64,000 nt of DNA from Chloroflexota bacterium (GTDB lineage Bacteria; Chloroflexota; Anaerolineae; JACRMK01). A program made the position numbers and the translations under genes. Under the pieces are notes generated by a model. It saw only the letters and a list, made by a program, of their open reading frames with translations, was not told the DNA's origin and ran no database searches. The stretch's first letter is position 1. Every line of letters starts with the position of its first letter. The stretch is taken from positions 24,435 through 88,434 of the forward strand of contig JACRMK010000009.1 in NCBI GenBank assembly GCA_016235055.1, written 5' to 3'. Shown here piece after piece: positions 1 to 26,911 of the stretch.

Positions 1-1313
1 CCAAGAACCTGCACCGCGAATCGACATTCCGGCTCGCCGAGCGCGAAGCGCTGCTCGTAGACGGCATCCTGTGCTGGGAAGACGTGGATGCGTTCCTTCA
101 TTTGAATGAAACACAGGACAACGAAGGCGATCACCGCGCCTTCGTGCAGAGCCTGTCGCAGTGCAGCGTGCCGGTCGTCCTGCTGGCGCACAAGGCGTGG
201 GAGCCGGCGCACGAACTCGGCCACCGCCCATATCTGCGCCTGGAGTTGCCAGATCCGACCTACGCCGAGCGGCGCGGGGTCTGGGCGAACGCACTCGGTG
301 ACGACGCTCCCATCATCGGCGACACGGCGCTGACGGCGCTTACCGGCCGCTTCCGCCTGACGACCGGGCAGATTCACGACGCCGTCGCCCGCGCGCGCAC
401 GCTCGCCTGGGTGCGCGACCCGCTGGGGCGCATCACTGCCGCAGATATCGACAACGCCTGCCGCAACCAGGCCCAGCACCGGCTCTCCAGCCTGGCCCGC
501 AAGCTGAACGTTCGGTACACCTGGGATGACATCGTCCTGCCGCGCCAGCAACTGGCCACGCTGAAGATGATCTGCATGACGATCCGCCAACGGCCGATCG
601 TGTACGGCGACTGGGGCTTCGATCGCAAACTGGCGATGGGCAAGGGGCTGATCTCGCTATTCGCCGGACCGTCCGGCACCGGCAAGACGATGGCGGCCGA
701 GATCATCGCAAACGATCTCGGGCTCGATGTGTTCAAGATCGACCTATCGGCCGTCGTGAGCAAGTATATCGGCGAGACCGAGAAAAACCTGGAGAAGATC
801 TTTAGCGAAGCGCAGGACAGCGACGCCATCCTGTTCTTTGACGAGGCCGACGCGCTCTTCGGCAAACGGTCGGAGGTCAAGGACGCGCACGACCGCTACG
901 CCAACATTGAGACCGCCTATCTGCTGCAGCGCACAGAAGAGTACAATGGGCTCGTGATTCTGGCGAGCAATATCAAGAAGAACATGGACGAGGCGTTCGT
1001 GCGCCGCATTCACTTCATGGTGGACTTCCCGTTCCCCGAGGAGACCGAGCGGTTCGAGATCTGGCGGCGCACTTTCCCCGCGCAGGCGCCGCGCGACGGC
1101 GATATCGACTTCGACTTCCTGGCGCGCAAGTTCAAGATCACCGGCGGCAATATCCGCAACATCGTGCTGGCCTCCGCGTTCCTGGCTGCAGACGAGGGCG
1201 CGCCGATCGCCATGCGCCACCTGGTGCGCGGCGCCAGCTACGAATTCCAGAAGATGGGCAAGTTGGTCGTTCCCAACGATTTCGAGCAGTACTTCGACTA
1301 CGTCAAAGGCTAA
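1..1313 (+). CDS. AAA+ ATPase of contractile-injection-system loci (Afp15/Cis15-like), 5'-truncated by window edge
   Basis: The frame of ORF 84..1313 stays open back to nt 3 (KNLHRESTFRLAEREALLVDGILCWEDV...), so the true N-terminus lies upstream of the window. Walker A GPSGTGKTM. Walker B ILFFDEADALF. CDC48/FtsH-like region ASNIKKNMDEAFVRRI. Same operon as the sheath, tube and baseplate genes. Confidence 0.85.
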   Translation, partial: KNLHRESTFRLAEREALLVDGILCWEDVDAFLHLNETQDNEGDHRAFVQSLSQCSVPVVLLAHKAWEPAHELGHRPYLRLELPDPTYAERRGVWANALGDDAPIIGDTALTALTGRFRLTTGQIHDAVARARTLAWVRDPLGRITAADIDNACRNQAQHRLSSLARKLNVRYTWDDIVLPRQQLATLKMICMTIRQRPIVYGDWGFDRKLAMGKGLISLFAGPSGTGKTMAAEIIANDLGLDVFKIDLSAVVSKYIGETEKNLEKIFSEAQDSDAILFFDEADALFGKRSEVKDAHDRYANIETAYLLQRTEEYNGLVILASNIKKNMDEAFVRRIHFMVDFPFPEETERFEIWRRTFPAQAPRDGDIDFDFLARKFKITGGNIRNIVLASAFLAADEGAPIAMRHLVRGASYEFQKMGKLVVPNDFEQYFDYVKG

Positions 1314-1341
1314 GAGCTAACCACCCACACGAGGCCATACT

Positions 1342-2013
1342 GTGACCGATACGCAGGGTACGCCGGAACCATTCCCCGCCATGGAGCGGGGACTGCGCTT
1401 CGCCCATGTGATGATGTCCGTGATGCAGGACCAGGGCAACGAGGCGATCGCCTACGTGCAGGCGCTGACCGACTTGCTGGTTGAGAAAGGCGTGCTGCAG
1501 GCGGACGAGATCGAGGCCCCGCTCGAACGCGCGCGCGAGGAAGTCGGCAAGGTCGTCGTGCCGCGCGTGCGCCTGGCCGATCTGGGCGACAAGTACGAGT
1601 CGGGCGAGAATATCATCATCGACTGCGCCAGCCTGATACCGCTCTGTCAGGCGCGCTGCTGCACCTTCCGATTCTTCCTGACGAAGCAGGACCTGGACGA
1701 AGGCATCGCGCGCTGGGACTACGGCAACCCGTACTGGATCCGGCAGAATGACGACGGCTACTGCAGCCACAGCCACACGCCGACGCGCGGCTGCACGATC
1801 CACGCGAACCGCCCGCACGTCTGCCGCAATTACGACTGCCGCAAGGACAAGCGCGTCTGGCTCGACTTCGAGAAGCGCATTCCGGCGCCAATGCCGGAAC
1901 TGTCCGGCAACGCGCCCGTTGCCATGGCCGAGGTGGCGCTTCAGAATTCACGCAAGAACGGGAACGAACCGGCCGCCAGCGATGTCGGATTTGCGCCGCG
2001 AGACGCAAGCTAG
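1342..2013 (+). CDS. Cysteine-cluster protein, CxxCxxCC-type putative Zn/Fe-chelating domain (YkgJ/UPF0153-like)
   Basis: GTG start 28 nt after the ATPase stop. The C-terminal half has the Cys pattern DCASLIPLCQARCC ... YCSHSHTPTRGC ... HVCRNYDC. The N-terminal ~90 aa look helical and unassigned. Confidence 0.55.
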   Translation: MTDTQGTPEPFPAMERGLRFAHVMMSVMQDQGNEAIAYVQALTDLLVEKGVLQADEIEAPLERAREEVGKVVVPRVRLADLGDKYESGENIIIDCASLIPLCQARCCTFRFFLTKQDLDEGIARWDYGNPYWIRQNDDGYCSHSHTPTRGCTIHANRPHVCRNYDCRKDKRVWLDFEKRIPAPMPELSGNAPVAMAEVALQNSRKNGNEPAASDVGFAPRDAS

Positions 2014-2017
2014 GCGT

Positions 2018-2066: not shown

Positions 2067-2090
2067 CTTGCAGGGGGAGCAGCGTGTTCG

Positions 2091-3668
2091 ATGACCAGTG
2101 AACCTGGCTTGCGCCGCCTCAGGCGCAAGCGAAAATCAAACAGTTCCGAGCGCGACTCATTGGCCGTGCGCCGCAGCGAAGCCGCTGCTGCGGAACCCGG
2201 CGAGTCCGTTGTGTCTGAGCCCGCACTGCCGCTAGACAGTGTCGCGTTTGCGCGCGCCGATTCTGCTACGCGCGCCCGTTCCGTGTCGGATTTACAGCAA
2301 GCGCACGGCAATGCGTTCGTTCAGCGCCAAATCGTGCAGCGCCAGCCCGATGCCGAACAAACCGCACGCCGCGCCTTCATCGCGCGCGGTTTGATGCCCA
2401 ATGCAAACGGGCTGGATACCCGCGCGACCACCACGCAGGGCGGCGGATTCAATGCACGGTTTGACCCGTCGAGCGGGGAACTACTGATCCGGCTGAGAGT
2501 CGGCATCAACTTCCTGGATGGCATCAATATTACCGATGCCGCGACCGGCGCCATCGCGCCCGCCACGGCCGACTTTGCCGGTGCGGCCCGAACAATTCGT
2601 ACCCTGCATCCCGACGCGCCCTCGCGGGTGGCCGACGTCACGGCCAACTGGCAGTGGAACGCGGGCGCCAAGACTCAGTGGGCGCGCGATTACGCGACGG
2701 CGGCGCAAACGGCGTGGGGCGGCAAGCACTACTTCCACTCCAGACGCTGGCCCGATCTGAGCGCCAGCGTGCGCGTTGAGATGGACGTGCATGACGGCCA
2801 TCGCGCAACTGATCACTGCAAGGCGACGGTCTACAAGTCGACCAGCGGCTTTTCCGATATGGGCGCTTCAGTGGATTACTCTGGCGCGTCTGGAACGGGC
2901 TACCGGGCGCGCTTTGCCAGTTCGGCCCTGGGTGCTCCGCTCGATTTCCTGAACTACCGCCTCGAATACCCATCCGGGGGCGTCTCCGTCGCACAGGCAA
3001 CCGGCGCAACCTCGCTCGGCGCCGGCGATCCCGGCCCAACCTATCTTAACAAGTTCATCGCCGATTTTCAGCGCGGCCGCGTCGGGGAAGGCGCGCCCGT
3101 GCACCTCATTGGCCATGCCAGCGCCGGCGGCAACCCGGCGGCAAACCAGCGCATCTCCGACCGGCGTGCACAGAACGTCGCCGCCTATCTGCGGTCGAGC
3201 GGGCAGCGGATTGCCGGCAGCCGGATCGACGCATCGGGCGTCGGCGCCGAGGGCGCGACGGCCGCCGACGAGTGGCGGCGGGTGGACATTCAGGTCGGCA
3301 GCGGGCAGGCGCAGGTCACCATGATCCACGAGACCGGGCACATGTTCGGCCTCGGAGACGAGTACGCCTCGCCGGCGGGCGGTTTTGCGCCCGGCGCGGG
3401 AACGCCCGGCACTATCGGGCAGCCGGCCCAACATGGCGCGCTGGCCAGCGCGATGGGCGGCGGCGTGCAGGGCGCAGTTTACGAGAACAACGATAACATC
3501 ATGTCGGTGGGAAACGTGGTTCGCCCGCAACACTACGCGACATTCCTGGAGGCGCTCAACGCGGTCGCCACACCCGAAGCGTTCGAGTACGGCGGCCCCG
3601 GCCGCCGGCCGCTTAGCCCGGTGGACCTCGTGCGTCCGCCTGGTCCTCCGGGTACGGCAGTGGCGTGA
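2091..3668 (+). CDS. Candidate CIS effector: disordered basic N-terminus + OmpA_C-like peptidoglycan-binding module + zincin HExxHxxGxxD metallopeptidase motif
   Basis: OmpA_C-like stretch HLIGHASAGGNPAANQRISDRRAQNVAAYLRSSGQRIAGSRIDASGVGAEG...WRRVDIQV. Zinc motif MIHETGHMFGLGDEY (snapalysin-type spacing), with NIMSVG downstream as a possible Met-turn. The first ~90 aa are basic and low-complexity and end in LQQAHGNAFVQRQIVQRQ, a motif shared with 4111..4833. Confidence 0.6.
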   Translation: MTSEPGLRRLRRKRKSNSSERDSLAVRRSEAAAAEPGESVVSEPALPLDSVAFARADSATRARSVSDLQQAHGNAFVQRQIVQRQPDAEQTARRAFIARGLMPNANGLDTRATTTQGGGFNARFDPSSGELLIRLRVGINFLDGINITDAATGAIAPATADFAGAARTIRTLHPDAPSRVADVTANWQWNAGAKTQWARDYATAAQTAWGGKHYFHSRRWPDLSASVRVEMDVHDGHRATDHCKATVYKSTSGFSDMGASVDYSGASGTGYRARFASSALGAPLDFLNYRLEYPSGGVSVAQATGATSLGAGDPGPTYLNKFIADFQRGRVGEGAPVHLIGHASAGGNPAANQRISDRRAQNVAAYLRSSGQRIAGSRIDASGVGAEGATAADEWRRVDIQVGSGQAQVTMIHETGHMFGLGDEYASPAGGFAPGAGTPGTIGQPAQHGALASAMGGGVQGAVYENNDNIMSVGNVVRPQHYATFLEALNAVATPEAFEYGGPGRRPLSPVDLVRPPGPPGTAVA

Positions 3669-4054
3669 TGAGCGACGACGTGTTGGTCAGCTACACAACA
3701 TATCCGGTCCGAGGACGGTCATCGGCGCTTCGGATCTACGCTGATGGGCGCGTCGAAGATCGAATCGGCGAGCAGGCGTGGAAAGCTGTCACGCGGCTCG
3801 GCCCGCGCCAGATCGCAGACGTGCGCAAGCACCTGCATGCGTCGGGCATCTTTGAGCGCGCGGCGAGCGCCGCAACGCCAGCGGCAACAGCCCACGGCGG
3901 CGTCTGCACCTGGCTGGCGCATGACAACGGGCGACGGGCTGAGGTGACGGTCGAGCCGTGGAACGACGACAATCCCGCGGCCACTCCATTAAGGTTGCTC
4001 GCTTTGCAAATGGATGCAGTGATTGGCGCGGCGCAGGACGGTCGCATCGAGTAG
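3665..4054 (+). CDS. Hypothetical small protein translationally coupled to the zincin gene (candidate inhibitor/immunity or chaperone)
   Basis: GTG 3665 and ATG 3668 overlap the upstream TGA stop (3666-3668). 129 aa with no recognisable motif. Confidence 0.45.
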   Translation: MMSDDVLVSYTTYPVRGRSSALRIYADGRVEDRIGEQAWKAVTRLGPRQIADVRKHLHASGIFERAASAATPAATAHGGVCTWLAHDNGRRAEVTVEPWNDDNPAATPLRLLALQMDAVIGAAQDGRIE

Positions 4055-4110
4055 CAGGCCGATGACGCGAACGCTTGTCCGTTCGCGTGCGGCCAATTCG
4101 GGAGGCCATC

Positions 4111-4833
4111 ATGTCCAACGAATATGATCGAGTGCAGCACGAGCGCGAAGGCGCGCGACAGACCAAACCGGCCGAGTTCCAGGAAGCGCCCGGCGAGACC
4201 GAAGCGGAGGCGATGAGCCGCGCCTTCGTTCAGAACGCGGGCACGCAGCCGGCACAGATTGCCTCGGCGCTGTCGAGCGCCGACGGTTCGATGCGCGCCC
4301 AGGCGCTGAGCCGTCTGCAGCAGGAACGAGGCAATGCATACGTGCAGCGCGTGGTCTCCGAGTCCAAGGGCGCGCCCGGCCGCATGGTCGGCCTGTCGCA
4401 GCCGGACATGGTCGATGAAGTCCTACAGCGCAAAGGCTCCGGCCAGGCGTTGCCCGACACAGCGCGCGCCCCCATGGAGTCGCAATTCGACGCGGATCTG
4501 TCGGACGTGCGGGTGCACACCGATGGCGAGGCCAAGACGCTCAACCGCGAACTCGATGCGCAGGCCTTCACGGTCGGCAAGGACATCTTCTTCTCCGAAG
4601 GCAAATACAACCCGACGAGCAGCGACGGCATGGGCCTGCTGGCCCATGAGATGACGCACGTGGGGCAGCAGGTCGGCTTCGGCGGCGCGGTGCAGCGCGA
4701 GGCGGCTGCGGAGGAGGACGAAGACACGCTCCAGCGCCAGGCCGTGCAGCGAGCGCCCGAAGAAGATGAGATGCCGCCGCGGGCGGCCGCGGAGAACAAG
4801 AAACCAGACGAAGAAGCCGCCGCAGCCACATGA
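4111..4833 (+). CDS. DUF4157 ('eCIS core domain') protein with HExxH motif
   Basis: ESQFDADLSDVRVHTDGEAKTLNRELDAQAFTVGKDIFFSEGKYNP...GLLAHEMTHVGQQ fits the DUF4157 pattern. ATG 4111 is preferred over the ORF-track start 4075 because GGGAGG lies about 6 nt upstream. The N-terminal region carries LQQERGNAYVQRVV. The acidic C-terminus has LQRQAVQR. Confidence 0.75.
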   Translation: MSNEYDRVQHEREGARQTKPAEFQEAPGETEAEAMSRAFVQNAGTQPAQIASALSSADGSMRAQALSRLQQERGNAYVQRVVSESKGAPGRMVGLSQPDMVDEVLQRKGSGQALPDTARAPMESQFDADLSDVRVHTDGEAKTLNRELDAQAFTVGKDIFFSEGKYNPTSSDGMGLLAHEMTHVGQQVGFGGAVQREAAAEEDEDTLQRQAVQRAPEEDEMPPRAAAENKKPDEEAAAAT

Positions 4834-5756
4834 TCAACGACCTGGACGAAACGCTGAAGGCGCTGCTGCTCAAGAAGGCCGCCCTCGACCCGTCCGAAGT
4901 GGATATCAGCTTCGATATCCCGACGCGCGAGTGGTCGACGCCTGTCACGCGCCCGACCGTCAACCTGTACCTGTTCGACATCCGCGAAAACCGGCAGTTG
5001 CGCGAGATGGACTGGGATGTCGAGTCGGGCACCAACGGGCAGGTCACGCGCAAGCGCATTCCGGTGCGTATTGACGTCTCGTACATGATCACCTGCTGGA
5101 CCAGCGCGGCCGAGGACCAGCATCGCCTGCTCTGGCGCGTGCTGGAAACGCTCTTCCGCCACTCGCCGCTGCCGGACGACGTGCTGGTGGGCGACATGCG
5201 CCGATTGCAGCGCCCGGCCCGCACCGAGGTGGCGCAACCCGACGGCATCCTCAAGAACGTATCGGACTTCTGGGGCGCGCTGGAAAACCAGTTGCGCCCG
5301 GCCATCAACCTGGTCGTCACGCTCGAGCTCGACCTGAACCAGGTGACGGTGTCGCCGATGGTCTTCGCGCAGGGCATCAAACTCGGCATGCCGGTCATTC
5401 GCCGCGACAATACCGGTCGCGAATATTACATGTCGGAGTTGCGCCCCGGCTGGGAACTGCTGCCGCTGCGGCTGGCCGGCATTGTGCGCGATCCGAAGGG
5501 ACAGCCTGTGGCCGGAGTCTCCGTGCGCATCGTCGGACAGACGCCGCGCGGCCCGGAGCAGTTCGGGCCCACCGTGGAGACCGACGCCAGCGGTCGCTAT
5601 CTGTTCGGTACGGTGCCGGCCGGCGAATACACGCTCATCGTCGAAGCCGCCGGCCAGGCGCCGAAGAACTACCCCTTTGCTGTGAAGATTGGGGAGCGGG
5701 GACAGATCATGCCCGCCTTCATCCATGAAGTGGAGGTGGCCATGGCCCCATCATGA
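4830..5756 (+). CDS. DUF4255/Pvc16_N-type tail terminator (Afp16/Cis16-like) with C-terminal carboxypeptidase-regulatory-like beta-sandwich
   Basis: ATGA start/stop overlap with the upstream gene (4830-4833). N-terminus MINDLDETLKALLL..VDISFDIPTREW..PTVNLYLFDIRENRQLR. C-terminus GIVRDPKGQPVAGVSVRIVGQ..TDASGRYLFGTVPAGEYTLIV. Confidence 0.8.
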   Translation: MINDLDETLKALLLKKAALDPSEVDISFDIPTREWSTPVTRPTVNLYLFDIRENRQLREMDWDVESGTNGQVTRKRIPVRIDVSYMITCWTSAAEDQHRLLWRVLETLFRHSPLPDDVLVGDMRRLQRPARTEVAQPDGILKNVSDFWGALENQLRPAINLVVTLELDLNQVTVSPMVFAQGIKLGMPVIRRDNTGREYYMSELRPGWELLPLRLAGIVRDPKGQPVAGVSVRIVGQTPRGPEQFGPTVETDASGRYLFGTVPAGEYTLIVEAAGQAPKNYPFAVKIGERGQIMPAFIHEVEVAMAPS

Positions 5757-5827
5757 CCCCGCCACCCTGACCGTGCCGTGACCCAGTACGTAAATCAGAC
5801 CAACCGGAATCCTAAGAAGGAGGATCC

Positions 5828-7499: not shown

Positions 7500-7943
7500 A
7501 TGGCAGGACGCAAAGACCCCTTAATCGCACCACGGTTTGTGGTGAAGTTCGGCGACAAGATGGCGGGCTCGTTCCGCGAGTGCACCGTCGTCTCGGCCGA
7601 GCACGAAGTGGCGGAGTACAAGTTCGCCGACGACAAGGGCAACCCCGGTTACTATGCGGTGCCCGGGCGCATGAAGTTCGGCCGCATCACGCTGAAACGC
7701 GGCCTGACGAACGACATGAGCATGTGGAAATGGCGCAAGATGGTCGAGGACGGCAAGGTGAACGAAGCGCGCACCAACGGCTCGATCCTGATGTGCGACC
7801 AGGACGGTTCGCCGATCGCCGAGTTCAACTTCGAGCAGGCCTGGCCGCTGAAGGTCAGCGGCCCGGCGCCGAACGCGAACTCGAACGAGGTCTCGATGGA
7901 AGAGGTCGAGATCATCTGCGAGCGCGTCTACCGCGCCACGTAG
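7500..7943 (+). CDS. Tail tube protein (T4 gp19-like, Cis1/Afp1-like)
   Basis: AGGAGG RBS. 147 aa. PRFVVKFGDKMAGSFRECTVVSAEHEVAEYK...PGRMKFGRITLKRGL is a T4 gp19/CIS tube pattern. Lies directly after the sheath gene. Confidence 0.85.
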   Translation: MAGRKDPLIAPRFVVKFGDKMAGSFRECTVVSAEHEVAEYKFADDKGNPGYYAVPGRMKFGRITLKRGLTNDMSMWKWRKMVEDGKVNEARTNGSILMCDQDGSPIAEFNFEQAWPLKVSGPAPNANSNEVSMEEVEIICERVYRAT

Positions 7944-7998
7944 GTTCTTGGTTAACCGTTGCGGGGAAGGCGGTCAAGCCGGCCGCCTTCCCCATCCA

Positions 7999-17787: not shown

Positions 17788-17821
17788 GTCAAGCTCATGC
17801 GAACCGCCAGGTGGTGCACTC

Positions 17822-19936: not shown

Positions 19937-20039
19937 TCACAATTTGATTTGCCGGCACGGCGCCGGACGAGCCTATCGAAGGGCAGTTGCCATGACGGCG
20001 GCCGGATGGATTTCGCGATGACCTGCGGCGTAGGTTCTC

Positions 20040-21326: not shown

Positions 21327-21356
21327 AGTTGCTGCACGCGAAATTGACGAGGATCC

Positions 21357-22655
21357 ATGTTCGACCAAATTAGCAACTCGCTGCCCAAAAGCCCGAACAT
21401 GCGCATGCTCGGTGGCTTGCTTATGGCCATCTTCGCATGCATCGTCTGCATGCTGGGATCGTTTCTCGCGCTGGGGCCGCAACCGGCGCCGACTGTGCCC
21501 CCAGCCACCGTGACGCAGTTCGCCGCGGCGGCGGCGACCGAAACGCCGCTACCGACTGACACGCCCATGCCAACGCCGACGTCCACGCCGACCAATACGC
21601 CAACCAATACGCCAACCGGGACGTTGCAGCCCACGCCAACCTTCACGTCGACGCCGACAAACACGCCCACCGCAACACAGACGCCGACGAACACGGCGAC
21701 GCGGACGCCGACCAAAACGCCGACCCAGACGGCCACACCGACCAACACGCCCACCGCGACCCCCTATCTGCGAACGCCGCAGAATATCGCGGTATACGCG
21801 AAAAGCGGCAACGTATGGGTCACAAACCGCATGGACAACTCGGTGGCGGAGGTGGACGGCCGCAACGTGTCGCGCGTGCTGACCCGCATCGCCGACATCC
21901 CCAGCCCGAACGGCATCGCCATCTGGCAGGCGGCCGGGCTGGCATACGTAAGTAACCGCGAGCAGGCGACAGTGACGGAGATTGACCTGAATTCCAAACG
22001 CGTGCGCCGGACCTACGCGGTCGGCGCACTGCCGTGGGGTCTTGCAGTCGACGAAAACAGCGGCGTCGTGTTTGTCGCCAACTTTGGCTCGAATCTGTAC
22101 TCGTGCATTCGGGTCGATACGGGCCAGGTCGCTTCCATCCCGATCGGTTTCGGCCAACCCGCGCACGTGCATTATAATGCGCAGACGGATGCGGTCTACG
22201 GCGTCAGTCGCGACGGGCAGGTGGTGCGCCTGTACTGTGTAGATGGCGGCGGTTCCGATAAGTTCGCCGACGCCAGCCTGTTCGACCTGAGCATGTCCGA
22301 TAATGCGGCTTACGGCTACGTTTCGGCATTGGAGAGCAAACGGGTATACGGGTTTGCGCGCATCGCCGGCCGGAGCTATCCGTTCAGGAACGCGCCGTAT
22401 GGGCTTGAGTACATGGGCCGCTGCGTCGGCGTGATGGTGCCGGCCGAGGATCGTTTGTACGCGCTGGACAACACGCTATCCACGGCCGTACGCTCTTATG
22501 CGGTCGGAAAGCAGTCCGTCGGTGAAGGCGGTCAGGGTATCGCGTACTTTGCGCCGACGGACACCGTATACGTGGCCAACTACGCAGCCAATAGCCTGTC
22601 GGCGATTACGGCGCCATGTCCGGTGTCATTAACGCCAACCTACGTCTTTTACTAG
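21357..22655 (+). CDS. Tandem paralog of 20040..21326 (TM anchor + Pro/Thr linker + YVTN beta-propeller)
   Basis: [40 protein letters not shown]. Same domain order and motifs ([32 protein letters not shown]). 31-nt gap from its paralog. Confidence 0.7.
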
Positions 22656-22706
22656 TTCTGGTGCGCGCCACACGGCGCACCCATCTCGCCGCAAGGATAC
22701 GGTTGC

Positions 22707-23816
22707 ATGGCATCGGTTCTCCTGTCTGCGAATCACGATCGTGTCAGCGTCGCGCCCGGCTCGAGCGTCGAGTTCGTCGTAACCATCCAGAACCTGACGA
22801 CGCTTGTCGATCAGGTGACATTGCGCGTCGAAGGCATCGATAGCCGCTGGGTGCAGATGGTTCCGCCGGTTCTGCCGGTCTTCGCACAAGGCACTGCCTC
22901 GGCACGCGTGATCATCTCGCCACCCGCACACCCGGCCGAGGCGATGGCCGGCAGTTACGGCGTGCAAGTGGCCGGCGTATCGCAGGAACGGCCGGGCGAA
23001 AGCGCCGTGACGAACGTCACGCTCGACGTGCAGTTGGTTGGCGACTATCAGTTGCGTCTCACGACGCCGCAAGCGGGCGACCTGCCGCAGGAGCGGCGTT
23101 ATCCGCTGCGCGTCATCAACGGCGCCAACGCTGTGCTGCTGGTGCACCCGAGCGGCCAGGACCGCAACGGCGATTTCTGGTACAAGTTCGAGCCGTTTCA
23201 GCTTACGGTCCCGCCTGGCGGCGAAGGCACACTCGTCGTCACGGCGCGCGCCAAGCAGATGACCGTCGCCCAGCGCGCGGTCGCCTTCAACGTGGCGACC
23301 ACCGGCACATATACGTTACGCGACGGTAACGCCGTCGACGCGGCGCCGCGCGACGTCGCGGGCCAGTTTGCGCAGGGCGCGCTGGCCACCCTGATCGTCT
23401 CGGTGGCACCGGCCCAAATGCGTGCGCCGCTCACGGGCATATTCCAGGTGCGCGTTGGGAATCCGGGACCGATTCCGGTGAACGCCCGGCTGGCCGTCAG
23501 TGAAGCCGCTGAAGGACTCTCGTTCCGCTTCAATCCGGAGCAGGTCGTGCTGGCGCCGCAGTCCGAGCGCCCCGTGTCGCTGAGCGTACGTGCGGCCGGC
23601 ATGCTGGCCGCCGGCGGCGCAGCGCACAGCTACGATTTTCGGGTTGCGGCCGCCGCGACTGACGGCCTGGCTGAGCCAGGTGCGGCTTCGGCGCAATTCG
23701 TGCAGATTGCGCCAGTCAAGCCGGTACCGTGGGCGCTGATCATCGGCCTGCTCACACTAGCCCTGATTGCATGCTTTGCGTTCGCCATCGTGATTGTCAA
23801 TAACATGCCGCGATAG
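22707..23816 (+). CDS. Tail-anchored membrane protein with three Ig-like domains (short paralog of 17822 and 23846 genes)
   Basis: No signal peptide. The first domain VSVAPGSSVEFVVTIQNLTTLVDQVTLRVEGIDSRWV has the same signature as the larger paralogs. C-terminal TM WALIIGLLTLALIACFAFAIVIV is followed by only NNMPR. Confidence 0.65.
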   Translation: MASVLLSANHDRVSVAPGSSVEFVVTIQNLTTLVDQVTLRVEGIDSRWVQMVPPVLPVFAQGTASARVIISPPAHPAEAMAGSYGVQVAGVSQERPGESAVTNVTLDVQLVGDYQLRLTTPQAGDLPQERRYPLRVINGANAVLLVHPSGQDRNGDFWYKFEPFQLTVPPGGEGTLVVTARAKQMTVAQRAVAFNVATTGTYTLRDGNAVDAAPRDVAGQFAQGALATLIVSVAPAQMRAPLTGIFQVRVGNPGPIPVNARLAVSEAAEGLSFRFNPEQVVLAPQSERPVSLSVRAAGMLAAGGAAHSYDFRVAAAATDGLAEPGAASAQFVQIAPVKPVPWALIIGLLTLALIACFAFAIVIVNNMPR

Positions 23817-23845
23817 CGGATACCCTCCCAAGTTGAGGAAAGTTC

Positions 23846-26800
23846 ATGCCCACTACCGTCGTGACTGTTGATCCGCCCCTCGTCTCCGTGCAGGCAGGCA
23901 GCCAGGCGACTGTACGTGTTGCCGTGGAGAACCGCAGCGATTTTGTCGGCCAGTATCAACTGTCGCTGGCCGGCGCCGATGCCTCGTGGGTCACGTTCGA
24001 GCCGGATCAGGTGGCTGCGTTTCCGGGCAGCACGGCCAACGCCACCATACGCTTGAGTTTGCCCGCCAGCGTCATTCCGGCCACGTACCCGACGGTCGTG
24101 CGCGTGATCAATCAGAGCGACACGTCCGATGAAGCACGCGCGCTGCTGCGCCTCAACGTCACCGCCGCTCCCGGCAGCCAGCCAGGCGGCACGCCAGGTT
24201 TTGTCGCGACGGGCGCAGGCAACCCGCCGCCAACCGGCATGCCCGAGTCGCGCCGGACTGCGCCCCCACCGCCGGTCGCGGCATTCACCGGCGTGCCCGC
24301 CCGGCGCGCGGCCTCGCCGGGTGCCGGCCAGCTCGAATTGTCGATTGACCGCGACAGTATTACCGTCCTGCCCTCCGGCAGCCAGTCGATCAACGTCATC
24401 TGGCGAAACACCGGCGGTACCGCCCTGGCTATCGACGCGGAGCTGCAGGGCCTGCCGCCGGCCTGGATCCGGCTGGAGCCGGCTGCCTTCGATCTGCCAA
24501 AGACGAGCACCGTGCCGGGCCGCGTTACGATCTCACCGCCCTCCGAGGCGCCGACCGGCAGCTACCCGATCACGCTCGTCGGCACCGAGCGCAATACCCC
24601 GGGCATGGCTGCCAACATCGACCTCGTGCTTGAGGTCGGTGAGGCCGGTGGCGTAACGTTGGAAATCGTTCCGCCGCAAGCGGCGGGCCAGGACGGCGCC
24701 ACCTATCGCGTGCGTGCAACGCAGAGCGGCACGACGCCGCTGAATGTGTCGTTCTTTGCCTCCGATCCGGATGCGGCACTCGCATATACATTCAATCCGG
24801 CGACGATCTACGTGCCGCCATCCGGCGACGCAACCAGCGAATTGAGCGTGCGCGCGTCGAAAGGGCTGGTGGGCGTCGAAACGCAGAACTTCCAGTTTAC
24901 TGTCACGGCGACGGCGGCGGAAGGCACGGCCCGCGCCGCGACGGCCTCCGGGCTTTTCGTGCAGCAGCGCACGCCCACGATCGGACTCGTCATCGCCCCG
25001 GCCGAAGTAACCGCGCCCGACAGGGCAACGTACACGATCCGCGTCAAGAATCCGAGCGCCATTCAGACCAATGTGCGGCTCGTGGCCGCCGACGGCAACA
25101 ACGCGTGCCGCTACCTGATCAATCCGCCGGCCGTGGCCGTGCCGGCCGGCGGCGAAGCGCAGGCCAGCCTGCTCGTCACGCCGCAGAAGCTGACGGCCGA
25201 GCCGGGATCGATCATCAACAACTTCACCGTGAGTGCGGAGCCGAGCGGAAGTCTGCTGACCGGCGCGCAGGCCAGCGGGAAGTATGTGCAGACCCAGACC
25301 ATCCTGCCATCCATTCGGCTGGCGCCAGGCAGCCAGTCGTCGACCGGCGCGGCAACGTTTAATGTGCAGGCGACTAACACGCGCCCCACGGCCCTCGATG
25401 TTGAGTTGCGCGCTTTTGATGCCGCCAACCTGGTCGAGCTAAGGCTGAGTACGGCACAGTTGCGGCTGCCGCCGAACGGCTCGGCGCAAGCCAGGGTCAC
25501 AGCGCGCCCAACCACGAAGCTGTTGGCCGGCGAGGCGCGCCGCCCGAACGAGTTTACGGTCGAGCTGCATGTCCCCGGTCTGGAGCAGACCGCGCAGGCC
25601 AAAGGCACGCTCGTGCAGGTCGGCGGGTTCAACTTTGCGCGGCTGATTCCGATCATCCTGCTGCTGGCCGCGCTCGTCGTGTGCGTCGGCGTCGCGGCGC
25701 TCACGCTGCCGACCATTGGCGGCTGGCTATCGGACCGGCAGCGGGAGATCGCAAAGTTTCTGCAGGCGGCGCCCACGCCGCTGCCGCTGGTGACGTTTGC
25801 GCCGTTCACCCCGACGCCGACCATCACGCCGATTCCGACCCCGACGCTGATCCCGGTGCCGTTCGCCATCAAGGGTGTCACGGCGAAAGTGTCGCCAGCG
25901 TCGGCCAATAGCTGCCCCACCACTCTGAGCTTCTCAGCGGAGATCGAAGTTTCACAGGTCGGCAGTATTACGTATGTATGGGAGTTCAGCGACGGATCGA
26001 GCACCACGCCCAGCACCCTGAACTTCGGTGCGGCCGGCAAGCAGACGGTCAACACCTCCAAGTCGTTCAATACCAACGGCGTGGTTGGCGGTCACGTCAA
26101 GATCACCGCGCCGCCATCGCCCGATTCCAACCAGGCATCCGCAACGCTCAACTGTCCGGCCGCCCCCACCGCCGCGCCGGCCGCGCCGACGGCGACGCCG
26201 AAGCCGGCCACCGCGACGCCGATGCCCACACTGCCTCCGGCCATCTTCGTCGCCAACTTCAGCGGTGACTGGACGACGAACTTCGGCAGCATGCATCTTA
26301 ATCAGGGCGGCCCGTCGATCACCGGCACGTATTACAATGGTTTCTTGGGACAGGGCGGCACGATCGCCGGCACAGTGACGGCCAATACGTTTAACGGCAC
26401 CTGGTCGATCTCAGGCGGCACCGGATCGATCCAGTTCAACATGGGCGCCGACGGGGCGTCATTCACGGGTAAGTTCAATGGGACCACCGATTGGTGCGGC
26501 GCAAAGCACACAAGCACCGCCACGCTTCCGCCCGGGTGCGGCTTCTCCGGACCGTGGAGCATTCGCCTGTCGGGCGGCACGCGCACGATGACGCTCGTCC
26601 AACGTGGCGACAACACCGTGAGCGGCACCTATAATAATGGCACCGCGAACGGCACGATAAACGGCACCGTATCGTATCCACCCACCAATGTGGTCCTCAA
26701 CGGCACCTGGACCGTCGGCGGTTCCACAGGTTCGATTCGCTTCTTCCTGAACGACTATAATGCCACCCGATTCCAGGGCAACTACAATACGACCTTCGAG

Positions 26801-26854
26801 TGGTGCGGCTGGCGCGATGGCGGAACGCAGCCAGCACCCTGCCTGCGCAACTAA
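23846..26854 (+). CDS. Bitopic membrane protein: five N-terminal Ig-like domains, central TM helix, Pro/Thr linkers, extracytoplasmic Ig-like domain plus two ~90-aa Gly/Thr/Asn-rich repeat modules
   Basis: No signal peptide (MPTTVVTVDPPLVSVQAGSQATVRVAVENR...). TM LIPIILLLAALVVCVGVAALTL at about aa 595-620. PT linkers. C-terminal duplicated module ...NGTWSISGGTGSIQF...DWCG / ...NGTWTVGGSTGSIRF...EWCG. Confidence 0.65.
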   Translation: MPTTVVTVDPPLVSVQAGSQATVRVAVENRSDFVGQYQLSLAGADASWVTFEPDQVAAFPGSTANATIRLSLPASVIPATYPTVVRVINQSDTSDEARALLRLNVTAAPGSQPGGTPGFVATGAGNPPPTGMPESRRTAPPPPVAAFTGVPARRAASPGAGQLELSIDRDSITVLPSGSQSINVIWRNTGGTALAIDAELQGLPPAWIRLEPAAFDLPKTSTVPGRVTISPPSEAPTGSYPITLVGTERNTPGMAANIDLVLEVGEAGGVTLEIVPPQAAGQDGATYRVRATQSGTTPLNVSFFASDPDAALAYTFNPATIYVPPSGDATSELSVRASKGLVGVETQNFQFTVTATAAEGTARAATASGLFVQQRTPTIGLVIAPAEVTAPDRATYTIRVKNPSAIQTNVRLVAADGNNACRYLINPPAVAVPAGGEAQASLLVTPQKLTAEPGSIINNFTVSAEPSGSLLTGAQASGKYVQTQTILPSIRLAPGSQSSTGAATFNVQATNTRPTALDVELRAFDAANLVELRLSTAQLRLPPNGSAQARVTARPTTKLLAGEARRPNEFTVELHVPGLEQTAQAKGTLVQVGGFNFARLIPIILLLAALVVCVGVAALTLPTIGGWLSDRQREIAKFLQAAPTPLPLVTFAPFTPTPTITPIPTPTLIPVPFAIKGVTAKVSPASANSCPTTLSFSAEIEVSQVGSITYVWEFSDGSSTTPSTLNFGAAGKQTVNTSKSFNTNGVVGGHVKITAPPSPDSNQASATLNCPAAPTAAPAAPTATPKPATATPMPTLPPAIFVANFSGDWTTNFGSMHLNQGGPSITGTYYNGFLGQGGTIAGTVTANTFNGTWSISGGTGSIQFNMGADGASFTGKFNGTTDWCGAKHTSTATLPPGCGFSGPWSIRLSGGTRTMTLVQRGDNTVSGTYNNGTANGTINGTVSYPPTNVVLNGTWTVGGSTGSIRFFLNDYNATRFQGNYNTTFEWCGWRDGGTQPAPCLRN

Positions 26855-26870
26855 CCCGGACAAGCAGGCG

Positions 26871-26911
26871 GCAGGCGGGCGAGGCGCGATGCCTCGCCCG
26901 CCTGCATTTCC
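26871..26911 (+). terminator. Strong hairpin marking the end of the CIS operon (weak U-tract)
   Basis: Perfect 15-bp stem gcaggcgggcgaggc / gcctcgcccgcctgc with loop gcgat (26871-26905), followed by atttcc. Starts 17 nt after the last stop codon. Confidence 0.5.

Follow-up and report, generated by a model that had tools for sequence, protein, structure and literature searches.

A predicted five-gene membrane module occupies the tail-fibre slot of a Chloroflexota contractile injection system cluster of the Streptomyces cytoplasmic type

What kind of contractile injection system (CIS) is encoded in the window, by which we mean the whole 64,000-nucleotide stretch of Chloroflexota DNA analyzed here, and what occupies the slot of its tail fibres? 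A first-pass annotation of the sequence had described a CIS operon on a single strand, and Pfam confirmed nearly every one of its gene calls. Pfam scans and open reading frames delineate one tightly packed cluster at positions 3–26854, with every gene on the + strand (Table 1). The cluster thus reaches almost as far as first proposed (1–26911), but the earlier gene list stopped at gpI (17787) and left the genes of 17822–26854 undescribed. By homology, we assign the locus to a chromosomal CIS gene cluster of subtype IId, the Streptomyces cytoplasmic CIS lineage. Subtype IId is already known in Chloroflexota, where it was described in 2026.

The 5' end of the cluster lies outside the window, and the ATPase is cut at its edge, its reading frame being open from nt 3 as noted before. 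The sequence L087 adds 578 nt upstream and lengthens the ATPase to 629 aa with WHD and AAA domains, still open; as the orthologue in L068 has 737 aa, the full protein is probably a WHD plus AAA ATPase of ~730 aa. At the other end, we place the boundary at 26854 because a perfect promoter opens the next, housekeeping operon, which encodes YceD, FabD, FabG, NusB, and TatC. Matches to the sigma70-type consensus numbered 8 in the window, where 0.62 were expected, and the one in front of yceD has no mismatch.

Table 1. Features of the cluster and of its 3' flank, in window positions
Feature	Position	Strand	Evidence
Cis15/Afp15-type AAA+ ATPase, C-terminal 436 aa	3-1313	+	Pfam AAA 1.1e-26
CxxCxxCC protein, 223 aa, putative Zn/Fe-chelating	1342-2013	+	Pfam PF03692 6.7e-5
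Cargo (effector) candidate, 525 aa (L084 call: 502 aa)	2091-3668	+	Pfam OmpA 5.5e-7
128/129-aa protein	3665-4054	+	Start overlaps stop of 525-aa cargo gene (GTGATGA)
DUF4157/eCIS_core protein, 252 aa (L084 call: 240 aa), candidate cargo	4075-4833	+	Pfam eCIS_core 2.4e-30
Cap/tail terminator Cis16/Afp16	4830-5756	+	Pfam Pvc16_N (DUF4255) 4.7e-31
Contractile sheath Cis2	5828-7438	+	Pfam Phage_sheath_1 plus 1C
Inner tube Cis1a/Afp1	7500-7943	+	Pfam Phage_T4_gp19 1.7e-32
Conserved small protein, up to 149 aa	7948-8397	+	tblastn conservation
DUF6760 small protein	8340-8609	+	Pfam DUF6760 3.4e-16
Ala/Pro-rich protein, ~90 aa	8587-8859	+	Translation
Second tube paralogue, Cis1b/Afp5-type tube initiator layer	8862-9305	+	Pfam Phage_T4_gp19 8.3e-43
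716-aa DUF4157/eCIS_core protein	9334-11484	+	Pfam eCIS_core 8.9e-17
Gap	11485-12002		519 nt, without convincing coding potential
Tube initiator/LysM protein Cis7/Afp7	12003-12947	+	Pfam CIS_tube 1.3e-29 plus LysM
VgrG-like spike Cis8	12960-14747	+	Pfam Phage_base_V 5.2e-29 and GPD
gp25-like sheath initiator Cis9	14765-15166	+	Pfam GPW_gp25 3.1e-22
Baseplate wedge Cis11 (Baseplate_J), 683 aa	15184-17234	+	Pfam Baseplate_J 1.8e-15
Small baseplate wedge Cis12, Tail_P2_I type, 176 aa	17257-17787	+	Pfam Tail_P2_I 9.5e-16
Ig704, bitopic membrane protein	17822-19936	+	AF2 pLDDT 82, synteny
NHL428	20040-21326	+	Pfam NHL 3.8e-12, TM scan
NHL432, tandem paralogue of NHL428	21357-22655	+	62% identity, BLASTP 5e-156; Pfam NHL
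Ig369, short paralogue	22707-23816	+	BLASTP vs Ig1002 2e-28
Ig1002, long paralogue	23846-26854	+	BLASTP vs Ig704 1e-70 over 660 columns
sigma70-type promoter	26965-26993	+	TTGACA-17-TATAAT, 0 mismatches, in front of yceD

By homology, the cluster encodes a full sheath–tube–baseplate particle, made of Cis16, Cis2, Cis1a, and Cis1b together with Cis7, Cis8, Cis9, Cis11, and the small Cis12, with an AAA+ ATPase encoded alongside. The Pfam HMM scan supported the earlier calls of cap, sheath, tube, second tube paralogue, long DUF4157 protein, LysM protein, VgrG-like spike, gp25, gpJ, and gpI, as well as those of the AAA+ ATPase and the Cys-cluster protein. Among the structural proteins searched against the PDB, every one with a match hit chains of the S. 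coelicolor cytoplasmic CIS best (8bky, 9gts, 9gtp, 9gtr); this was so for the sheath, the cap, Cis7, VgrG, Cis11, and Cis12. The sheath matched 8bky/8bl4 over its full length (E 1.7e-139), its nearest relatives being sheaths of Chloroflexota MAGs (60–74% identity). Residues 1–166 of the cap matched S. coelicolor Cis16 (9gts_0A, 2.3e-28), and the protein carries an extra C-terminal CarboxypepD_reg beta-sandwich domain (Pfam 4.5e-14). Cis7, with a Pro/Gly-rich N-terminal extension, matched 9gtp_P (2.9e-29), the spike 9gtr_q (9.1e-59), and Cis12 the 190-aa chain 9gtp_E (2.6e-19). For Cis11, the alignment to 9gtp_1K (2e-149) begins at residue 33 of the longest ORF, and we read its true start as the ATG at 15184.

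Structures of Afp, PVC, AlgoCIS, and tCIS scored far below those of the S. coelicolor CIS, in agreement with the earlier view of an eCIS-type locus, distinct from prophage tails and T6SS, that looks more like Streptomyces-type cytoplasmic CIS than like Afp or PVC. Gene order is kept across 80 related loci, mainly from Chloroflexota and Actinomycetota. Judged by the nearest CIS homologues, the host is most likely an uncultured Chloroflexota bacterium with ties to Anaerolineae, although the CIS lineage of subtype IId is known to move horizontally. That sheath, tube, baseplate, and VgrG are phage-tail homologues could also point to the decayed tail of a prophage or to an R-type tailocin that only recently arose from a phage. 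We consider this extremely improbable, however. The cluster has the Pvc16_N cap, AAA+ ATPase, and DUF4157 hallmarks of eCIS, as first annotated, along with CIS_tube; the sheaths of pyocin and T4 match only very remotely (3e-15 and 1e-5); there is no tRNA gene; and Pfam scans of the 64-kb window found no capsid, portal, terminase, integrase, lysis (holin, endolysin), or T6SS genes, just as the first reading had reported. Upstream of the ATPase, the two relatives checked (L068, L005) have no phage or T6SS genes, and the genes found there in relatives encode a BTAD regulator or an ABC transporter.

Between the two tube genes, where a chaperone pair had been proposed, we found three small ORFs instead, and the chaperone role was left without support. 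The 149-aa protein is among the best-conserved genes of the lineage (40–70% identity, mostly 50–66%, over Chloroflexota and Actinomycetota loci). Its alignments start near residue 25 and it has a C-terminal CxxC...zinc-ribbon-like end; it had no significant Pfam or NCBIfam match and no PDB match. The DUF6760 protein, whose true start is probably near 8400, has equivalents called at the same position in L081–L083. The ~90-aa Ala/Pro-rich protein has homologues in L068, L006, and L028, and carries the C-terminal motif VYELMRRDL, which is similar to the C-terminus of the 716-aa DUF4157 protein. The latter is largely of low complexity, has a HELAH motif, and occupies the tape-measure position just 5' of the baseplate genes, which makes it the positional equivalent of Tme, the tape-measure-related effector of S. 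davawensis (PMC11126660). In the gap that follows it, the sole ORF (11562–11891) has no family match and an implausible composition, and a terminator-like hairpin with a T-rich tail lies at 11625–11640. The gap may be the boundary between two transcription units.

The 5' part of the cluster contains the cargo slot, whose proteins, by homology, carry DUF4157 and HExxH motifs and have an N-terminal motif in common. The 525-aa cargo candidate combines the N-terminal 'LQQAHGNAFVQRQ' motif with an OmpA-like peptidoglycan-binding domain and a HETGHMFGLGDEY metallopeptidase motif, and has weak NCBIfam matches to OmpA anchors, an M6 domain, and snapalysin. The 252-aa DUF4157 protein has the corresponding N-terminal motif 'LQQERGNAYVQR' and a HEMTH motif. 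Motif enrichment is further evidence for the 525-aa candidate. The 128/129-aa protein encoded between them had no family match in Pfam or NCBIfam and no tblastn match at E 1e-5 in loci of other species; it may act as an immunity or chaperone partner. Of the two ATGA overlaps annotated earlier, the one at 4830 is exact, whereas at 3665 the sequence reads GTGATGA, with the stop at 3666–3668 and the start at either GTG 3665 or ATG 3668. The CxxCxxCC protein is no known CIS core part, and its conservation is patchy (35–76% identity in some related loci by tblastn).

Apart from the five conserved membrane-protein genes in its tail-fibre slot, the cluster is an ordinary member of the Streptomyces/Chloroflexota type. 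The first-pass annotation was right that conventional fibres are lacking, but the slot is filled by Ig704, NHL428, NHL432, Ig369, and Ig1002. Ig704 has no signal peptide and comprises five Ig-like beta-sandwich domains, predicted to be cytoplasmic, a Pro-rich linker, a TM segment at ~615–651, and a short helical C-tail; Foldseek matches of its AF2 model are ASH-type ciliary Ig arrays. Ig369, whose position is conserved in five loci (L081, L083, L088, L089, L090), likewise lacks a signal peptide and ends its Ig-like domains with a TM helix at the extreme C-terminus (tail-anchored). In Ig1002, also devoid of a signal peptide, an Ig array collinear with that of Ig704 (residues 1–588) is followed by a TM segment (589–626), a Pro/Thr linker, and a ~340-aa ectodomain. 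This ectodomain, modeled with pLDDT 85.5 by AF2, has one Ig-like domain and two ~90-aa beta repeats ending in WCG[AW]R, and no PDB fold matched it at an E cutoff of 1e-3 to hint at a binding partner. NHL428 is predicted to have a short cytoplasmic N-tail, a TM anchor, a Thr/Pro-rich linker, and an extracytoplasmic NHL beta-propeller. The ectodomain proteins show fibre-like modularity, with a conserved N-tail and TM segment and exchangeable ectodomains (NHL, LGFP plus CarboxypepD_reg, or unknown).

Could these genes be an unrelated cell-surface or signaling operon adjoining a fibre-less, adaptor-less cytoplasmic particle? The Ig-array family is indeed broad, with 4526 representatives under an E cutoff of 1e-3; it is not CIS-specific, most of it has no known CIS link, and kinases and FHA domains occur as fusion partners in some members. 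We nevertheless find this explanation improbable. The first Ig gene lies directly 3' of Tail_P2_I in 6/6 independent contexts (homologues 42–57% identical), with the Ig trio retained. What lies past the module changes from one context to the next (yceD/fab, transglutaminase/DUF58, DegV, integrases, or BTAD regulators). As the module also lies on the strand of the baseplate genes with gaps of 30–104 nt, short spacing and synteny despite differing flanks suggest that it belongs to the CIS cluster. Moreover, Ig704 has only ~18 strong homologues among 5.8 billion proteins, and all those examined are within CIS clusters. Matches to an HMM of the N-terminal Ig domain adjoin related clusters in Actinoplanes and Chloroflexia loci and lie directly 3' of Tail_P2_I in Dactylosporangium; one Pfam-scanned protein among them has an Ig-TM-PASTA architecture.

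Several features predict that the Ig arrays of the trio are cytoplasmic. The Ig ORFs begin at the first possible start codon and their N-termini are not hydrophobic. In 16 homologues, a positive-inside count gave 36 K+R and few acidic residues on the N-side of the TM segment, and 24 K+R with more acidic residues on the C-side. Among the 147 top family representatives, 87 are Ig-first with a later TM segment and no signal-like segment, and only 4 have a signal-like N-terminus. In relatives where the Ig domains are fused after a Ser/Thr kinase and FHA domain, no TM segment was detected in between. This topology bears on whether the locus is a classical Afp/PVC-like eCIS, with lysis-released particles that bind other cells and the Ig/NHL proteins as unusual fibres or receptor-binding proteins. 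Its core gene set is the eCIS set, fibres are encoded after the Tail_P2_I adaptor in ~90% of eCIS loci, and eCIS fibres often contain Ig-like and beta-propeller domains (PMC12923769). However, all five proteins have TM helices, and an N-terminal TM segment would put the propellers across the membrane from the baseplate. In addition, Pfam scans gave no match to the eBAP5 fibre anchor DUF6519 (Pfam has no models for the other eBAP anchor domains), a lysis cassette was not found in the cluster, and the lineage members studied by experiment are intracellular, so that we regard a classical eCIS as quite unlikely.

We also weighed a permanently anchored, T6SS-like machine, in which the Ig/TM trio and the ectodomain proteins would form a trans-membrane complex that holds the baseplate perpendicular to the membrane, and the tube would be fired outwards across the envelope into neighbours, as in the haloarchaeal T6SS. 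A conserved membrane-protein module does adjoin the baseplate genes, and exchangeable ectodomains fit components exposed to the outside. Among solved sheaths, the best match after the two Streptomyces CIS sheaths is that of the Halogeometricum T6SS (9ezm, 2e-97), a membrane-anchored machine with which a lineage-specific membrane protein is associated. Even so, this arrangement appears unlikely to us: Pfam and NCBIfam scans did not find TssJ/L/M, TssA, TssK, or ClpV homologues, obvious toxin–immunity pairs of the T6SS kind were not found, and the closest characterized relatives (Streptomyces, Roseiflexus) behave otherwise. The spike also lacks PAAR, as first noted. VgrG and gp25 are 17 nt apart and a relative's PAAR protein found no match in the 64 kb (best E 3.4), although PAAR is present in at least 30 related loci.

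The best explanation, which we hold to be probable, is a subtype IId intracellular CIS that, we infer, is docked to the membrane by the 17822–26854 module. A cytoplasmic location has been published for members of the lineage from Streptomyces (PMC10066040, PMC12237407) and from Roseiflexus and Deinococcota (PMC12998442), but the Roseiflexus and Deinococcota particles were seen free-floating, unattached to membrane, which speaks against docking. By analogy with the lineage, the particle would assemble and remain in the producer's cytoplasm, and would fire at the membrane of the cell that made it, or towards it, instead of leaving that cell to bind prey through fibres. From synteny and topology, we propose a link between Ig proteins and baseplate, in which the cytoplasmic Ig arrays and single TM helices of Ig704, Ig369, and Ig1002 would connect the Cis11/Cis12 wedge to the cytoplasmic membrane. 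The ectodomain of Ig1002 would face the cell wall, as would both membrane-anchored NHL propellers, and all three could position the machine or relay a triggering envelope signal.

Lineage-specific membrane anchors have precedents: the cyanobacterial tCIS has a TM-bearing Cis13, and the haloarchaeal T6SS has an anchor with 6 TM segments. In Streptomyces, the membrane protein CisA, needed for firing, is encoded where the window has the Ig/NHL module; its cytoplasmic N-terminus is disordered, however, and has no Ig array, the likeness being one of position and topology only. The module may be the functional counterpart of CisA, of Cis13, and of the haloarchaeal anchor. Because one cargo candidate combines a peptidoglycan-binding OmpA-like domain with a metallopeptidase motif, the likely target of the cargo would be the cell envelope.

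The 23 or 24 genes of the cluster all lie on the forward strand between positions 3 and 26854 of the window (G+C content ~64%), and are separated by short or overlapping junctions. Gene identities were taken from Pfam scans. The sheath, tube and baseplate calls of the first-pass annotation matched their families, and its reading of the locus as a phage-tail-like contractile injection system (CIS) operon is borne out by the parts list. In Afp-like nomenclature, the core eCIS set comprises the sheath, the tube, an Afp5-like tube, the Afp7 LysM initiator (Cis7), the Afp8 VgrG, the Afp9 gp25, the Afp11 Baseplate_J protein (Cis11), an Afp12-type wedge partner (Cis12), the Afp15 AAA+ ATPase and the Afp16 DUF4255 cap. 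Except for the LysM part of Cis7, all of these genes scored above the Pfam curated cut-offs. As judged by homology, the cluster encodes a complete particle of sheath, tube and baseplate, including its cap and spike, together with an ATPase.

Features of the CIS cluster and its downstream flank (window positions)
Feature	Position	Strand	Basis or remark
AAA+ ATPase	3-1313	+	Pfam; ORF open at window edge
CxxCxxCC (YkgJ-like) metal-binding protein	1342-2013	+	Pfam; between ATPase and cargo genes
525-aa protein with OmpA-like domain	2091-3668	+	Pfam
128/129-aa ORF	3665-4054	+	No family match; start overlaps preceding gene
DUF4157/eCIS_core protein, 252 aa	4075-4833	+	Pfam
Pvc16_N (DUF4255) cap with added CarboxypepD_reg domain	4830-5756	+	Pfam
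Sheath	5828-7438	+	Pfam
gp19-type tube	7500-7943	+	Pfam
Three small ORFs (conserved 149-aa, DUF6760, Ala/Pro-rich ~90-aa)	7948-8859	+	149-aa protein at 7948-8397; 90-aa protein at 8587-8859
Second tube paralogue	8862-9305	+	Pfam
716-aa, mostly low-complexity protein with eCIS_core domain	9334-11484	+	Pfam
Gap, 519 nt	11485-12002
109-aa ORF, rejected as a gene	11562-11891
Hairpin with T-rich tail	11625-11640
CIS_tube + LysM (Cis7)	12003-12947	+	Pfam
VgrG	12960-14747	+	Pfam
gp25	14765-15166	+	Pfam
Baseplate_J (Cis11)	15184-17234	+	Pfam; start fixed from PDB alignment and sequence
Tail_P2_I (Cis12), 176 aa	17257-17787	+	Pfam
Five membrane-protein genes	17822-26854	+	Absent from the first-pass description
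Ig704	17822-19936	+	Ig array, TM
Ig369	22707-23816	+	Ig array, TM
Ig1002	23846-26854	+	Ig array, TM, ectodomain; beta repeats at 25766-26854
Sigma70 consensus promoter	26965-26993		TTGACA-17-TATAAT, 12/12
Peptide/nickel-type ABC transporter sets	35535-39445; 46576-51613
Lon protease	40751-43246
LysM + Peptidase_C39_2 protein	43267-44085

For each of the searched structural proteins that had a PDB match, a Streptomyces (S. coelicolor or S. venezuelae) CIS ranked first by a wide margin. The sheath matched 8bky/8bl4 over its full length (E 1.7e-139), Cis11 matched 9gtp_1K (E 2e-149), Cis12 the 190-aa chain 9gtp_E (E 2.6e-19), the cap 9gts_0A (E 2.3e-28), Cis7 9gtp_P (E 2.9e-29) and VgrG 9gtr_q (E 9.1e-59). 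Third among sheaths, behind the two Streptomyces CIS, was that of the haloarchaeal type VI secretion system (T6SS) of Halogeometricum borinquense (9ezm, E 2e-97). Matches to Afp, PVC, AlgoCIS and the Anabaena tCIS were much weaker (Afp/PVC sheaths, E 1e-40 to 5e-47), and the pyocin and T4 sheaths were remote. The grouping with the Streptomyces CIS is made on the rank order and E-values of these PDB matches, and it agrees with the resemblance to actinobacterial cytoplasmic CIS that the first-pass annotation had suggested. A scan of one genome per species returned 295 stretches with related sheaths. The closest belong to Chloroflexota MAGs (Anaerolineae, Ardenticatenales and 'Chloroflexi bacterium'; 60-74% identity), followed by Dehalococcoidia (~50%) and by Actinoplanes and other Actinomycetota (46-48%); the window is less close to the Chloroflexia loci L061-L066, whose sheath is enlarged, than to its nearest Chloroflexota relatives. 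When all window proteins were compared by tblastn with the related loci, the core gene order was the same throughout. The wedge gene pair consists of Cis11 and a small Tail_P2_I-type Cis12, with no large Afp12. The structural order of sheath, tube, small ORFs, second tube, Cis7, VgrG, gp25, Cis11 and small Cis12 presumably resembles that of the S. coelicolor cluster, our direct comparisons of synteny being confined to the other related loci.

We therefore assign the cluster to subtype IId, the literature name of this lineage, with very little doubt. Members of the subtype form cytoplasmic particles in Streptomyces and there bring about cell death under stress and influence development (PMC10066040; PMC10020575), and the lineage was extended in 2026 to Roseiflexus, other Chloroflexota and Deinococcota (PMC12998442). 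Cytoplasmic retention and action on the producer are known only for the Streptomyces, Roseiflexus and Deinococcota members. The machine is thus a further member of an already known, recently characterised lineage, and what appears to be new relative to that lineage is the conserved membrane module in the fibre/cisA slot, not the CIS itself.

The limits of the cluster could be narrowed down on both sides. A short contig of the same organism (L087) adds 578 nt upstream; with these the ATPase reaches 629 aa and has both a WHD and an AAA domain, and the ORF is still open. In L068, the closest syntenic relative inspected upstream, the ATPase has 737 aa and is preceded by a small ORF, a BTAD (SARP-like) regulator and a DUF4832 protein; in a second relative, L005, it is preceded by an ABC transporter and an extra Pvc16_N gene. 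These upstream genes and the length of the L068 ATPase suggest that the ATPase is probably the first gene of the cluster, with its start roughly 0.9 kb before the window. BTAD/SARP-like activator genes adjoin three related clusters (L068, 1463-2401; L089, 14758-15819; L090, 17000-18091) and may regulate them; the window, whose sequence starts inside the ATPase gene, shows no such gene. On the other side, a perfect sigma70 consensus promoter lies 111 nt past the last CIS gene and before yceD, in a window with eight near-consensus sigma70 sites (two mismatches or fewer) against 0.62 expected. Downstream follow the housekeeping genes yceD, fabD, fabG, nusB, tatC, an acyl-CoA dehydrogenase, peptide ABC transporters and lon. 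Two sets of peptide/nickel-type ABC transporter genes include three SBP_bac_5 paralogues, and a LysM + Peptidase_C39_2 gene lies next to that of Lon; these genes are ordinary chromosomal context. No tRNA gene or Rfam family was found in the 64-kb window by tRNA and Rfam scans. Within the cluster, the 519-nt gap between the 716-aa DUF4157 gene and Cis7 lacks convincing coding potential. A 109-aa ORF inside it has no family match and an implausible composition, and the gap was accordingly treated as non-coding. It contains a hairpin (CATGCCATGCGGCATG) followed by a T-rich tail, which may be an internal terminator or attenuator dividing the cluster into two transcription units.

Pfam scans of the 64-kb window detected no capsid, portal, terminase, integrase, lysis or replication genes, as had been noted from the sequence, and the relatives L068 and L005 also lack phage genes upstream. 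A prophage tail or tailocin would have the sheath and tube in common with this cluster, but it is effectively excluded within the sequence at hand by the missing lysis, integrase and fibre-chaperone genes (none of the latter was found in the window), by the presence of eCIS hallmark genes and by the remoteness of the pyocin and T4 sheaths. Likewise, neither Pfam nor NCBIfam gave a match in the window to TssJ/L/M, TssA, TssK/F/G or ClpV, confirming that the T6SS membrane complex and its ATPase are missing; the ATPase of the cluster, with one AAA domain behind an N-terminal WHD, is not of the two-domain Clp type. The absence of PAAR was also upheld. A tblastn search with a relative's PAAR protein found nothing similar in the 64 kb (best E 3.4), and VgrG and gp25, which flank a PAAR gene in at least 30 related loci (for example L082, 6647-6916), are separated here by 17 nt (14747-14765). 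PAAR is also lacking from the related locus L083, so that part of the lineage either does without it or has replaced it. The published S. coelicolor particle model contains no PAAR.

The 149-aa protein encoded behind the first tube gene is among the best-conserved proteins of the lineage, with mostly 50-66% and up to 70% identity from Chloroflexota to Actinoplanes. It gave no significant Pfam or NCBIfam match and no PDB match (Zn_ribbon_4 was seen in Pfam only below threshold), ends in a CPNC... zinc-ribbon-like motif, and is apparently a conserved part of subtype IId clusters that has no name yet. The CarboxypepD_reg beta-sandwich of the cap (residues 215-289) is a C-terminal extra of the window protein that the Streptomyces CIS does not have: the S. 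coelicolor Cis16 chain (225 aa) and Actinoplanes caps align only with its N-terminal 166-185 residues, whereas the alignment with Chloroflexia caps (L063, L066) reaches residue 275. Similar amphipathic C-terminal motifs occur in the 90-aa protein (...ADRVYELMRRDLLVHQER...) and in the 716-aa protein (...AQDVYELLKTRLRGELTRH...), and could be a docking element common to both. The CxxCxxCC protein is kept in some related clusters (35-76% identity) and missing from others; we know of no role for it in CIS biology.

The 525-aa protein and the two DUF4157 proteins (252 and 716 aa) are the cargo candidates. The gene of the first lies between those of the ATPase and the cap; the protein contains an OmpA-like peptidoglycan-binding domain and a HETGHMFGLGDEY motif, and the stretch with this motif has weak NCBIfam matches to snapalysin and an M6 metalloprotease domain. 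HEMTH is present in the 252-aa protein and HELAH in the 716-aa protein. An N-terminal 'LQxxxGNAxVQR' motif is common to the 525-aa and 252-aa proteins, and its core GN-x-x-x-[QAGS]-[RQ] was found in 39 ORFs of 29 related loci, compared with 2 in shuffled ORFs. In the loci inspected, the motif-bearing ORFs are several adjacent genes that lie upstream of the cap. The form 'LQxxxGNxxVQR(L)' recurs in the cargo regions of L002, L004, L006 and L012, including four adjacent genes of L002, and may be a loading signal. Streptomyces effectors are described as having 'a highly similar N terminus', DUF4157 is viewed as a core domain of CIS cargo, and Tme, a DUF4157 protein at the tape-measure position, is an ejected cargo in S. 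davawensis (PMC11126660); the common N-terminal motif and the DUF4157 proteins fit both the published effector N termini and Tme. We infer that the proteins of the cargo slot are loaded and that the envelope is their target. The cargo itself differs from that of the Streptomyces CIS, which has Sco4256-4258, TM proteins with ricin domains, in place of the OmpA/HExxH and DUF4157 proteins, and a further difference from the S. coelicolor / S. venezuelae CIS is the 716-aa DUF4157 protein at the tape-measure position.

In conventional eCIS, the position after Tail_P2_I encodes the tail fibres (PMC12923769). The first-pass annotation had described the operon as lacking a fibre. This holds in so far as no gene after Cis12 matches a conventional fibre family or DUF6519 in Pfam, but the slot is not empty: it is filled by the five membrane-protein genes. 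Three of these encode paralogues with an array of Ig domains and a TM helix (Ig704, Ig369 and Ig1002, hereafter the Ig trio), and two encode TM-anchored NHL propellers (NHL428 and NHL432). Ig704 and Ig1002 are collinear through the TM helix (E 1e-70), and Ig369 is related to Ig1002 with E 2e-28. The ORFs of the trio start at the first possible codon, have no hydrophobic N-terminus, and contain one TM segment each, at or close to the C-terminus of the Ig array. Ig704 had no sequence match to solved structures. Its AF2 model (16-sequence alignment, pLDDT 82) shows five Ig-like beta-sandwiches followed by a disordered Pro-rich linker, a long TM helix (615-651) and a short helical tail. A fold search with this model returns generic Ig arrays and is informative only through its top matches, the cytoplasmic ASH-type Ig arrays of ciliary central-apparatus proteins. 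In 16 homologues, the N-side flanks of the TM segment contain 36 K+R and few acidic residues, compared with 24 K+R and more acidic residues on the C-side. This excess on the N-side indicates an N-in topology, with the Ig arrays predicted to be cytoplasmic.

NHL428 and NHL432 are 62% identical. Both start with a short basic N-tail and a TM anchor, from which a Thr/Pro linker leads to an NHL beta-propeller, a layout in which the propellers would face the wall. The ectodomain of Ig1002 (~340 aa; AF2 pLDDT 85.5) contains one Ig-like domain and two beta repeats of ~90 aa each that end in WCG[AW]R (pLDDT >93). No PDB fold matched it at E 1e-3, and a hemophore or CARDB reading was rejected because these top matches were too weak. 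Other proteins carry the repeat module alongside Big_9 and PF16158 domains.

Word-indexed searches found ~20 close homologues each for Ig369 and Ig704, including ~18 strong Ig704 homologues with 42-57% identity; the broader family was reached only by an exhaustive HMM search, whose matches carry no genomic context. That profile search collected 4526 representatives at E <=1e-3. Among the best 147, 87 begin with Ig, have no signal-like segment and contain a later TM segment, and 4 have a signal-like N-terminus. Five family members (P0079, P0083, P0085, P0089 and P0086) carry a Ser/Thr kinase with FHA, or FHA alone, before the Ig array and TM, and in several members no TM segment was detected between the kinase with FHA and the Ig array. 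Like the rarity of signal-like N-termini, this speaks for a cytoplasmic location of the Ig arrays. By analogy, these fusions recall the kinase/FHA control of some T6SS. Next to the CIS cluster of L032, an ORF (2665-5835) has an N-terminus that looks FHA-like by eye.

Six genomic contexts of the module were examined: the window, L081/L082 (counted as one), L083, L088, L089 and L090. In all six, the first Ig gene directly follows Tail_P2_I and the trio is kept, with lengths of roughly 680, 370 and 630-1010 aa. Zero to two genes for N-anchored ectodomain proteins are inserted between the first and second Ig genes. These proteins share a conserved N-tail/TM region ('LPxSPxxRxLxGL...C..CM') and differ in their ectodomains, which are an NHL propeller, LGFP with CarboxypepD_reg, or unmatched. 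As in fibres, a constant attachment end is combined with a variable business end. The five genes might instead be an unrelated operon that happens to adjoin the CIS; we disfavour this explanation, as the arrangement is syntenic in six of six contexts while the genes beyond the module differ in every one of them. In L088, the next genes after the Ig module (12824-14857) encode two tyrosine recombinases (Phage_integrase), a hint that a mobile element can carry the cluster as a whole.

Outside these contexts, the Ig-domain HMM matched eight Actinoplanes loci, in a divergent upstream gene, and the three Actinoplanes proteins that we read have two Ig domains, a TM segment and a C-terminal domain. 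Four Chloroflexia loci were also matched; in L061, L063 and L066 the Ig-TM gene is divergent and lies upstream of the ATPase, not as a trio after Cis12. In Dactylosporangium loci the match lies directly after Tail_P2_I, and the one protein scanned with Pfam is Ig-TM-PASTA. The slot protein of the Chloroflexi locus L074, which has a TM segment at about residue 133 and a PD40 propeller, was not among the matches of the HMM.

We found no description of this conserved membrane module of the fibre/cisA slot in the CIS literature searched. The window and the Streptomyces CIS have in common a small Tail_P2_I Cis12, the lack of conventional fibre genes and of PAAR, and membrane-protein genes in the fibre slot; they differ in host phylum, in sheath sequence (~46-48% identity to the actinomycete relatives sampled) and in the content of the slot, five genes here and the single CisA in Streptomyces. 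CisA is a bitopic membrane protein, encoded at the fibre position, that is required for contraction and function in Streptomyces. Its position and N-in/TM/C-out topology resemble those of the Ig proteins, but by its published description it has a disordered cytoplasmic N-terminus and a periplasmic SBP-like C-terminal domain, whereas the cytoplasmic part of the window proteins is an ordered Ig array. The Roseiflexus or Chloroflexota-Deinococcota clade has phylum and subtype in common with the window. Its particles are intracellular, those of Roseiflexus and Deinococcota were seen unattached to the membrane, and close cisA homologues are absent from Roseiflexus, where the mechanism may differ (PMC12998442). 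The main text of that study contains neither 'transmembrane' nor 'tail fib...' and describes no such module.

Two further systems offer parallels. The Anabaena tCIS (PDB 7b5h) is held at the thylakoid by the fibre-slot protein Cis13, whose N-terminus sits on the baseplate and whose C-terminal helix spans the membrane, the topology predicted for the Ig trio. Cis13 is, however, a trimeric helical protein of ~150 aa and not an Ig array, and the tCIS belongs to another lineage (sheath 1.2e-51, VgrG 1.2e-42, Cis7 2.2e-13). In the PDB search the window Cis11 matched only the Streptomyces protein, with no match to the tCIS Cis11/cage domain, and Cis12 is extended in the tCIS and small here. The haloarchaeal T6SS is eCIS-derived and membrane-bound, and a lineage-specific membrane protein adjoins its cluster, the anchor candidate Hbor_38620 with six TM segments and a cytoplasmic domain of ~150 residues (PMC11566945). 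Its architecture is unrelated to the Ig trio and its host is an archaeon enveloped by an S-layer; this T6SS has been shown to kill in a contact-dependent way, whereas the window system is known from its genes alone. The lineage-specific membrane adaptors of these three eCIS-derived systems (CisA, Cis13 and Hbor_38620) are precedents for a docking module. An outward-firing, T6SS-like machine is a possible variant of such membrane docking, against which stands the lack of T6SS parts. By contrast, we disfavour a classical eCIS that is released from the cell. The core parts list and the hallmark domains (Pvc16_N cap, AAA+ ATPase, DUF4157-type cargo and LysM tube initiator) are shared with Afp, PVC and AlgoCIS, but in those released particles the wedge protein is large and of the Afp12 type, the fibres are trimeric and attach through baseplate anchor domains, and PAAR and a tape measure are usual. 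The slot proteins described here bear TM anchors, with the propellers predicted on the opposite side of the membrane, and are accompanied by neither a Pfam fibre family nor a lysis cassette.

Taken together, we lean towards the module being a functional part of the CIS that acts at the membrane, although with modest confidence. From its lineage, the particle would assemble and act inside the producer. From the anatomy of the slot proteins, the Ig trio would tie the wedge of Cis11 and Cis12 to the cytoplasmic membrane, the propellers and the Ig1002 ectodomain on the wall side could position the machine or relay an envelope signal, and firing would deliver envelope-directed cargo. A more specific proposal, which we regard as tentative and rather doubtful, is that the Ig trio and the exchangeable ectodomain proteins form a baseplate-membrane docking and trigger complex of subtype IId CIS. 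In such a complex, the cytoplasmic Ig arrays would hold the Cis11/Cis12 wedge, the TM helices would pair with the conserved anchors of the propeller and LGFP proteins, and the wall-facing ectodomains would sense envelope damage or contact and license firing. Against docking speak the breadth of the Ig family, which is not specific to CIS, the unattached Roseiflexus and Deinococcota particles and the disordered cytoplasmic part of CisA.

Before the Streptomyces-type CIS, no phage-tail machine had been shown to act within the cell that makes it; these CIS do so in regulated cell death and in development. Their membrane access and firing trigger are only partly understood, CisA being needed in Streptomyces. 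If its role is not confirmed, the locus described here is one more member of a known lineage. As it stands, the module is a concrete candidate for the missing Chloroflexota part, made of cytoplasmic Ig arrays and exchangeable wall-facing domains, and thereby a candidate answer to how at least one Chloroflexota clade without CisA reaches the membrane. If docking by the Ig trio is true, the Ig proteins of Actinoplanes, Chloroflexia and Dactylosporangium, in some of which the TM segment was checked, would make up a widespread adaptor family, which the kinase/FHA fusions would tie to Ser/Thr-kinase signalling. Different CIS lineages would then have solved attachment with unrelated membrane adaptors, and the NHL, LGFP and PASTA sensor domains would hint at the signal for firing.
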